DNA of 64,000 bases from Dictyostelium discoideum (taxonomy: Eukaryota). Every line of letters starts with the position of its first letter. Position 1 is the first letter of the stretch. The DNA is taken from positions 4,672,001-4,736,000 of the forward strand of contig CM000152.2 of assembly GCA_000004695.1 (NCBI GenBank), written 5' to 3'. The notes beneath the pieces are model-generated. The model saw nothing but the letters and a program-made list of their open reading frames with translations, had not been told where the DNA came from and made no database searches. A program made the translations under genes and the position numbers. This document shows, piece after piece, positions 55,823-56,653 of the stretch.

Positions 55823-56653
55823 ATGGGAGACGATGAAAGTGATAATAATAATAATAATAATAATAATAATAATAATAATAATAATAATAATAATAATAAT
55901 AATAATAATAATAATAATAATAATAATAATAATAATAATAATAATAATAATAAAAATGAAATACTATTTTGGAAAGTTTTTAGAAATATATATATATTTA
56001 AATATATATTTTCAAATTTCAAATATTCGGAATATTCGGAATATGATGAATTAGATTCAATTGATAATATCATTAGAGATTATAAAAATGGTATTGAAAT
56101 AATTAAAGATAAAGTAAAATCAAATAGTTCTTTATCTTTTGGTAATACTAAAAGTTTAAAAATTATTTTTGAAAATGTTAAAGAAACTGAAGAAAATCAA
56201 TTATTTTTAACTCAATTTATAAATAATTATTGTTTAAATTCAAATCTAGTTGGAGATATTTTTAATTGTATAATTAAATCATCGAATTTAATGGCATTAA
56301 CATCATTTATTAATATTTATAAATCAAATACAAGATTTAAATATCAAGGTGTTTTAATGAAAATGAATTTATTTATAGAATTTAAATTGGGTGAATTAAT
56401 CAATTTCTTAAAAAAATTTGTTAAAAATCGTCGGTATGATATTAAATTAAAACTAAAAAAAATTGAAGATTATCAATTTTCTGATTTAGAATTAAATGAA
56501 AATTTATTTATGCTTTTAAAACCATTAATAAATTGGGATACCAAAAACGAAAATATTAGAGAATCAAAATATACTATCAATAAAAGAAATGTAGTTTTAA
56601 AATATATCCATATATTTTTAACAATTGGATCCACTCAAGTAAAAAAAAAGTGA
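55823..56653 (+). CDS. SAP-family paralog copy 1: a truncated member that lacks the SAP domain and the C-terminal half.
   Basis: MGDDESDN followed by about 37 Asn from (AAT)n, then [15 protein letters not shown]...KVKSNSSLSFGN...EENQLFLTQFINNYC...YQFSDLELNENLFMLLKPLINWD, collinear with copy 2 at 57488. About 200 bp of upstream promoter sequence and the first codons ([11 protein letters not shown]) are duplicated with copy 2. The ORF stops at 56653, just before repeat island B. Confidence 0.6.
   Translation: MGDDESDNNNNNNNNNNNNNNNNNNNNNNNNNNNNNNNNNNNNKNEILFWKVFRNIYIFKYIFSNFKYSEYSEYDELDSIDNIIRDYKNGIEIIKDKVKSNSSLSFGNTKSLKIIFENVKETEENQLFLTQFINNYCLNSNLVGDIFNCIIKSSNLMALTSFINIYKSNTRFKYQGVLMKMNLFIEFKLGELINFLKKFVKNRRYDIKLKLKKIEDYQFSDLELNENLFMLLKPLINWDTKNENIRESKYTINKRNVVLKYIHIFLTIGSTQVKKK

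Follow-up and report, generated by a model that had tools for sequence, protein, structure and literature searches.

The gene referred to here as copy 1, a member of a tandem, SAP-annotated gene family of Dictyostelium discoideum, is probably an old short paralogue whose 5' end was replaced, in the AX4 lineage, by that of the neighbouring copy 2, at an Asn-codon repeat and with loss of its SAP-coding segment. It carries two lesions, a missing SAP segment and a missing C-terminal half, and sequence comparison indicates that these differ greatly in age: the truncation is old, whereas the loss of the SAP segment is a recent event of the AX4 lineage. Unless another locus is named, positions refer to the window, that is, the whole stretch of 64,000 nucleotides analysed (Table 1). 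The principal comparator is locus L005 of a diverged 'D. discoideum' assembly (GCA_054859385.1, here ACTFIR), in which the corresponding protein is P0008 (ACTFIR_000395).

Table 1. Features of the copy 1 region and of the neighbouring family members, in window positions.
Feature	Position	Strand	Description
Island A	55345-55589	.	4.2 tandem copies of a 58-bp unit, AAACTTTTTTTTTTAAAGAGATTACTATTGGTGCTCAAGATATTTCTTTAGGTTTTAGG (TRF); left limit of the putatively replaced segment
Copy 1 5' module	55596-55843	+	Upstream/putative promoter region, ATG at 55823, MGDDESD codons
Copy 1 ORF	55823-56653	+	276 aa (276 codons); ATG at 55823; TGA stop
(AAT)36	55844-55951	+	Putative right junction of the 5' replacement and site of SAP loss
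Copy 1 native body	55952-56653	+	Homologous to copy 2 residues ~140-411
Copy 1 AT-rich 3' flank	56654-56813	.	Conserved with the orthologous locus; no family homology, elsewhere only low-complexity matches
Island B	56814-57180	-	Non-AT-rich block, unique in the window; minus-strand ORF fragments GETSTIQTDIDGFQYQFVVISYDSVV, then hydrophobic ITLLAWVIIVSFIATTLVAF
Copy 2 5' module (putative donor)	57280-57556	+	ATG at 57488, MGDDESD, (AAT)16 at 57509-57556
Copy 2	57488-59902	+	804 aa; full-length comparator
Copy 2 segment without copy 1 counterpart	57557-57904	+	348 bp: AX4-specific GCKIL segment and degenerate SAP-like segment
Copy 3	60144-60825		ATG at 60144; dead 5' fragment, in-frame stops from ~60264
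Copy 4	from 61270		ATG at 61270, runs off the window; 1216 aa in the other assembly (GCA_054883475.1)

The tandem array and its SAP motif

The genes of this tandem Dictyostelium family combine an N-terminal SAP motif with a long helical body. Copies 1, 2, 3 and 4 are arranged head to tail downstream of an ArfGAP gene in the window, which has a G+C content of ~20% and contains poly-Asn tracts. Copy 5 lies outside the window; it is represented by P0001, identical to XP_640551.1 / Q54TP0, which is annotated as a 'SAP DNA-binding domain-containing protein'. P0001 is encoded on CM142509.1, the contig that matches the window at 99.7%, and XP_640551.1 comes from D. discoideum AX4; the window thus belongs to AX4 or to a nearly identical strain. 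Copy 1 belongs to this family by homology of its helical body (FQFSDxELNENL ... KYIxIF), with invariant columns in an alignment of seven members.

The SAP motif itself is decaying across the family. With a gathering threshold of 23.9 bits, the Pfam SAP model (PF02037) accepts copy 4 (32.7 bits) and leaves copy 5 below threshold (17.4 bits), and neither copy 2 nor P0008 gives a match even at E<=1. The preliminary description had attributed a SAP domain to copy 2, which these scores do not bear out, copy 4 being the only member above threshold. A SAP-like segment is present in copies 3, 4 and 5, and its absence from copy 1 is therefore a derived state. The resemblance of copy 1 to SAP-domain proteins is thus that of a body homologous to a family so annotated, one member of which passes the Pfam threshold. 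However, copy 1 has neither the segment nor a PF02037 match, the motif of copy 2 and of the ACTFIR orthologue of copy 1 is too degenerate to score, and DNA binding is a matter of annotation only.

Other members of the array show irregularities of their own. Copy 3 lacks ~2.8 kb of gene after 60732 and carries, at 60612-60676, a clean 65-bp insertion of 65% G+C (GCTAGCTACTCCCCTCGAAGAGGGGATGGTTAGCGGTGCGACAGGGGGGAGGAGACAGGGGGAAC) whose flanks are contiguous in the orthologues; this insert has no second copy in the window and no Rfam match. Between copies 2 and 3, ACTFIR and ACTFIW possess an additional full-length member, '2b', and a DUF5898 gene (L005 14300-19700; L006 948-5577), both absent from AX4. 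In a check for a recombinant origin, AX4 copy 3 was nearly equally identical to copies 2b and 3 of the orthologues. Copy 4 contains an in-frame (GAAAAA/GAAAGT)n tract at 62140-62390, giving ~80 residues of KEKE/SEKE repeats absent from the other copies. A further 5' family fragment (L004 8772-9572) is located just upstream of AX4 copy 5, inside a gene model (L004 8431-9703) whose product matches the Pirin family and which may be a mis-merge. The copy 2 gene model of GCA_054883475.1 (865 aa, L001 11654-14781) reaches into the dead copy 3, probably through a merge in the annotation; no recorded product corresponds to the plain 804-aa ORF. An Rfam scan of 52000-64000 returned one chance miRNA match, far below threshold, and nothing on this gene family or these assemblies was found in the literature.

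Structure of copy 1

In copy 1, MGDDESD is followed by the (AAT)36 tract and then, at 55952, by AAAAATGAAATACTATTTTGG, with nothing between, as had been described from the sequence. The resulting poly-Asn run has 37 residues, 36 of them from the (AAT)36. At the same point copy 2 has a 348-bp segment, flanked at both ends by Asn-codon repeats, after which it reads ...AATAATGATAATAAAAATGAAATACTATTTTGG, with KNEILFW at 57905. The loss had been put at ~360 bp. This is close to the size found (348 bp, or a net length difference of 288 bp, with the copy 1 tract 20 units longer), but the GCKIL segment, which had been counted as part of the loss, was probably not lost by copy 1, since it is absent from ACTFIR copy 2.

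The copy 1 ORF ends at 56653 with IGSTQVKKK-TGA, again in agreement with the preliminary description. Its homology with copy 2 ends at GGATCCACTCAAG (~56637), which corresponds to GGST in copy 2 (residues 408-411 of 804), so that copy 2 runs 393 codons past the truncation point and not 480 as proposed. The C-terminal half of the family (KPIEYY ... ILYNSNR) is consequently missing, the ORF ending at the equivalent of copy 2 residue 411. An independent chromosome-level assembly (GCA_054883475.1, CM142509.1), which matches the window at 99.7%, encodes an identical 276-aa product; the form of copy 1 is therefore not an assembly artefact.

A downstream exon, joined through an intron at CAA|GTAAAA (56639), was considered and rejected. 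All three plus-strand frames contain stops in 56654-57290, where the preliminary description had likewise seen no homologous exon, and tblastn detects no family homology there: the C-terminal 409 residues of copy 2 gave only noise against both strands of 56600-57300 (best E 0.79). Within the window, tblastn matches to the C-terminal half of copy 2 are limited to copy 2 itself and copy 4. An AlphaFold2 model of copy 1, built on an alignment of seven sequences, is all-helical and poor (pLDDT 53.6); a Foldseek search of the PDB with this model gave no match below E 0.28, and no fold is assigned.

An orthologue with the SAP segment and the same truncation

A protein search with the copy 1 body returned a single protein, P0008, of 329 aa. 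Its locus is collinear with 45757-55532 of the window (~10 kb, 88.7% identity), and the genes around it are those of the window, namely a SART-1-like gene, a large gene, NADAR and ArfGAP. By position, P0008 is accordingly the orthologue of copy 1 in the diverged lineage. It is 77% identical to the copy 1 body and shares its end point. At the DNA level, the copy 1 body is 85% identical to L005 10188-11124 and ~84% identical to copy 2, and the AX4 and ACTFIR copies 1 pair together in an NJ tree.

The 5' part of the orthologue is organized differently from that of AX4 copy 1. P0008 has a MEGMVI start followed by N7, the SAP segment ELSIKKLQKVTNDIGLLLSEDVNELYNGIEQYY, a second N7 and KNEILFWK ..., and ends in IFLKIGSIQVKNKVMKK-stop. 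The SAP segment occupies 204 bp between (AAT)7 at L005 10019-10039 and (AAT)7 at 10244-10264, an arrangement which agrees with the earlier mapping of the SAP loss to Asn-codon (AAT)n repeats. Since the ACTFIR orthologue keeps this segment, the loss is specific to the AX4 lineage. Of the native 5' region of ACTFIR copy 1, only the SAP part matches the window, at copies 2 (84%) and 4 (72%). The polarity of the change was set from a single outgroup locus (ACTFIR L005) together with the identity gradient within the genome, the fetched ACTFIW and ACTFIY loci ending before copy 1.

The 3' end, by contrast with the SAP segment, is common to both lineages. The orthologue reads IGSIQVKNKVMKK-stop at the same position, the sole difference being a 1-nt indel in an A-run that shifts the stop by four codons, and the DNA alignment continues unbroken past the stop region for a further 160 bp. 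The 3' truncation is therefore older than the AX4/ACTFIR split; before it, copy 1 evidently already ended in ...IGS(T/I)QVK, ~390 codons short of its neighbours. Exchange between Asn-codon repeats, together with an element-associated rearrangement, had been invoked to explain the two lesions. The core of this idea holds for the SAP loss, but the truncation, common to ACTFIR, is far older.

The orthologue of copy 2 also differs from AX4 at its N-terminus. ACTFIR copy 2 (767 aa) has 88% amino-acid identity to AX4 copy 2, with a dN/dS of 0.77. It begins with MARTRGQNKKPYF and then (N)n, like the MNKRTRD starts of copies 3-5, and has no GCKIL segment. The N-terminus of AX4 copy 2 (57488-57620), composed of MGDDESD-N16 and GCKIL, is specific to the AX4 lineage. 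The GCKIL segment, absent from ACTFIR copy 2, is hence a novelty of AX4 copy 2 and, on these comparisons, was probably never part of copy 1.

A 5' module shared with copy 2

The 5' modules of copies 1 and 2 (55596-55843 and 57280-57508) are identical at 214/217 positions (98.6%). Identity is 93% over the first 90 nt after the repeat and 84% in the rest of the body. The copy 1 module has a private internal duplication of 24 bp at ~55639-55662. The motifs ACTCC(C/T)ACC...GTAATCAT(C/T)CAAGATAATATTGAAACTATT...TTATACAAATCAAA of the module are also found upstream of ACTFIR copy 2 (L005 ~11367-11566), to whose module those of AX4 copies 1 and 2 are 92% and 92.7% identical, respectively. No counterpart exists upstream of the ACTFIR copy 1 orthologue, which has an unrelated native upstream region in front of its MEGMVI start.

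Over this module, the identity between paralogues in AX4 (98.6%) exceeds that between lineages (92%), which is the mark of a gene conversion tract. The module is present in ACTFIR copy 2, the MGDDESD peptide is specific to AX4 and the two AX4 modules are 98.6% alike; the direction of copying was therefore from copy 2 onto copy 1, within the AX4 lineage. A recent overwriting of the copy 1 5' end from copy 2 thus appears likely from the sequence. With 1.4% divergence between the paralogous modules and ~7% between the orthologous ones, the transplant can be dated, roughly, to a fifth of the time since the split.

Both junctions fall in simple sequence. Immediately before KNEILFWK, copy 1 has the codons AAT AAT AAT AAT AAA, as does the orthologue, whereas copy 2 has AAT AAT GAT AAT AAA, which indicates that the right junction used copy 1's own tract. 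On the left, the junction falls within poly(A/T) immediately beyond the 58-bp array of island A, low-complexity sequence in which it is not placeable to the base. Island A, between the ArfGAP gene and copy 1, is conserved in ACTFIR, where L005 is collinear to ~9861.

Coding status of copy 1

Between AX4 and ACTFIR, the copy 1 body (230 codons) shows 54.3 non-synonymous and 7.7 synonymous differences (dN 0.103, dS 0.065, omega 1.59), as compared with a dN of 0.050, a dS of 0.080 and an omega of 0.62 for the homologous part of copy 2, whose overall omega is 0.77. When random substitutions were simulated on the copy 1 sequence, conditioned on an open frame, the neutral Nei-Gojobori omega had a median of 0.7-1.1 and a 95% range of ~0.4-2.6. 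There is thus no sign of purifying selection on copy 1 residues in this comparison, the test having little power even for copy 2. In both AX4 and ACTFIR the ORF is intact, with none of the in-frame stops or frameshifts of a decayed pseudogene. It seems somewhat the likelier, judging from substitution patterns, that copy 1 is still translated under weak or diversifying constraint than that it is a recently dead ORF.

That copy 1 may be a dead pseudogene, its frame open merely by chance, is nevertheless a real if lesser possibility. Its omega lies within or above the neutral simulation range, and its dN is double the value for the matching part of copy 2. Both the SAP motif and the C-terminal half are absent, and other dead fragments occur in the array (copy 3 and the L004 fragment). 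However, 7-10% of random substitutions in the copy 1 body would create a stop codon, and 62 substitutions have produced none in either lineage, an outcome with a chance probability of ~0.004-0.017. Moreover, all three internal indels between AX4 and ACTFIR are multiples of three and the position of the stop is conserved. Full-length copy 2 is itself weakly constrained (omega 0.6-0.8), so that high omega values characterize the family as a whole.

A more specific role, in which copy 1 would be a maintained SAP-less and C-terminally truncated paralogue, under the promoter of copy 2 in AX4 and acting as a decoy or modulator of the full-length protein, is unlikely. If true, it would mean that the copy 1 frame has been kept open for longer than the AX4/ACTFIR divergence, and that copy 1 is co-expressed with the full-length protein and competes for partners of the helical body without DNA tethering.

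The 3' flank and island B

Island B begins ~160 bp past the copy 1 stop. The preliminary description had placed a 'repeat island B' ~150 bp from the truncation; the distance is about right, but the block is not a repeat in the window, where its sole other match is one of 52 nt at 83% (11630-11681). In ~135 kb of related loci, no copy was found except at the orthologous site. There, the core of island B (56851-57089, 240 bp) is missing from ACTFIR, although both edges are conserved, with the break at a shared CAG. The weak paralogue near 11.6 kb reads across the ACTFIR breakpoint, and ACTFIR has therefore most likely lost the core by deletion. The conserved edges imply that island B was already beside the truncated gene in the common ancestor; before the split, this unrelated block evidently stood ~160 bp downstream of copy 1. 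An intron-containing gene-like region around 11.6 kb (11400-12100) contains island-B-like motifs (GGTSTIPTDVDG, FVTVSCYDSV).

Candidate identities of island B as a transposon, a tRNA-linked element or a known gene were rejected. No tRNA gene was found near it and no convincing terminal inverted or direct repeats or target-site duplication, the only inverted repeats being AT-rich chance ones; searches of the protein database and of Pfam gave no homologue or match. Neither the 64 kb of the window nor the ~135 kb of related loci gives any sign that island B is a mobile element or caused the truncation, and the element-associated rearrangement suggested earlier is without support there. Island B is probably what remains of an unrelated gene. 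Its present setting and the truncation of copy 1 could both go back to one ancient rearrangement.

Proposed history and mechanism

In the AX4 lineage, ~380 bp of the native 5' end of copy 1 appear to have been replaced; the outcome can be read directly from the alignments and the mechanism is deduced from it. Copy 1 would have lost its own upstream region, the MEGMVI start, the short Asn tract and the SAP-coding segment, and would have gained ~230 bp of the copy 2 upstream region together with the ATG, MGDDESD and (AAT)n. The presumed junctions are the poly(A/T) after the 58-bp array on the left and the (AAT)n directly before KNEILFWK on the right. The likeliest mechanism would be ectopic (interlocus) gene conversion, or template switching during repair, with copy 2, which lies 1.7 kb downstream, serving as template. 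At the right-hand end, the (AAT)7 preceding KNEILFWK in copy 1 would have paired out of register with the N-terminal (AAT)16 of copy 2, the SAP segment being lost in the same event. On the left, pairing would have occurred within diverged but homologous A/T-rich upstream sequence. In terms of the sequences compared, the SAP loss is most simply seen as part of the 5' replacement. A two-step history would be equally compatible, in which 5' conversion is accompanied by a separate deletion between the two Asn tracts by slippage or single-strand annealing. In either case, the tract would later have grown to 36 units. The end product would be a 276-codon ORF with the putative promoter of copy 2, no SAP motif and no C-terminal half.

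This replacement shares with interlocus gene conversion a short tract of 98.6% identity amid paralogues that are ~84% identical, discordant phylogenies of 5' end and body, and a donor in the same orientation 1.7 kb away. It differs in having an out-of-register right junction in a trinucleotide repeat, which would have deleted a coding segment. Deletions mediated by microsatellites or direct repeats, through slippage or single-strand annealing, offer a second parallel: the 204 bp of the orthologue lie between two (AAT)7 tracts, where AX4 has one merged and expanded tract. Slippage alone, however, does not account for the replacement of the upstream region and of the start codon. Finally, truncated duplicates are found in birth-and-death families, and copy 1 resembles them as a partial gene at the edge of an array, beside dead fragments (copy 3 and the piece that precedes copy 5); unlike copy 3, with its in-frame stops, it has an open frame and a stop position conserved in two lineages.

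The preliminary description had regarded copy 1, set against copy 2, as an internally deleted, 3'-truncated derivative. Copy 1 is indeed a SAP-less and truncated family member, but it is not copy 2 minus a piece, the identity being 98.6% in the 5' part and ~84% in the body. An origin from a copy-2-like gene by one internal deletion, from the N-terminal (AAT)n to AATAATGATAAT before KNEILFWK, with a separate 3' truncation caused by island B as a mobile element, is very unlikely. The Asn-codon repeats that flank the missing segment on both sides in copy 2 would be in keeping with such a deletion, and the proximity of island B to the copy 1 stop with such a truncation. However, a deletion of this kind leaves unexplained both the step in identity at the repeat and the different native 5' end of the orthologue. 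GCKIL is a novelty of AX4 copy 2, the right flank of the tract is of the copy 1 type, without GAT, and the truncation is older than the SAP loss. For its part, island B has no second copy, terminal repeats, target duplication or transposon-like protein match.

The reverse polarity, in which the SAP-less AX4 form would be ancestral and ACTFIR copy 1 would have taken back a 5' end with a SAP segment from a paralogue through conversion, could appeal to the single outgroup and to the fact that conversion clearly happens in this array, but it is extremely improbable. Against every sampled paralogue, ACTFIR copy 2 included, the identity of the ACTFIR copy 1 SAP segment is no more than 83-87%; the segment bears no recent donor signature and is thus old in that gene and not a recent re-acquisition. 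In AX4 copy 1, by contrast, the 5' end does show the signature of a recent donor (98.6%), together with a start peptide specific to AX4.

Significance for the family

Replacement of the 5' end of an old short paralogue by that of its neighbour is a case of the ordinary birth-and-death and conversion dynamics of a fast-evolving, lineage-restricted tandem family, and involves known processes. For annotation of the family, copy 1 should not be named a SAP protein and copy 3 should be recorded as a pseudogene. As evidence on microsatellite-mediated gene remodelling the case is a minor addition; general views stay as they were, and no long-standing question is opened by it. It does provide a clean and datable example of the abundant (AAT)n / poly-Asn tracts of Dictyostelium serving as recombination junctions, here an Asn-codon tract at which a putative promoter was swapped and a domain removed between neighbouring paralogues.
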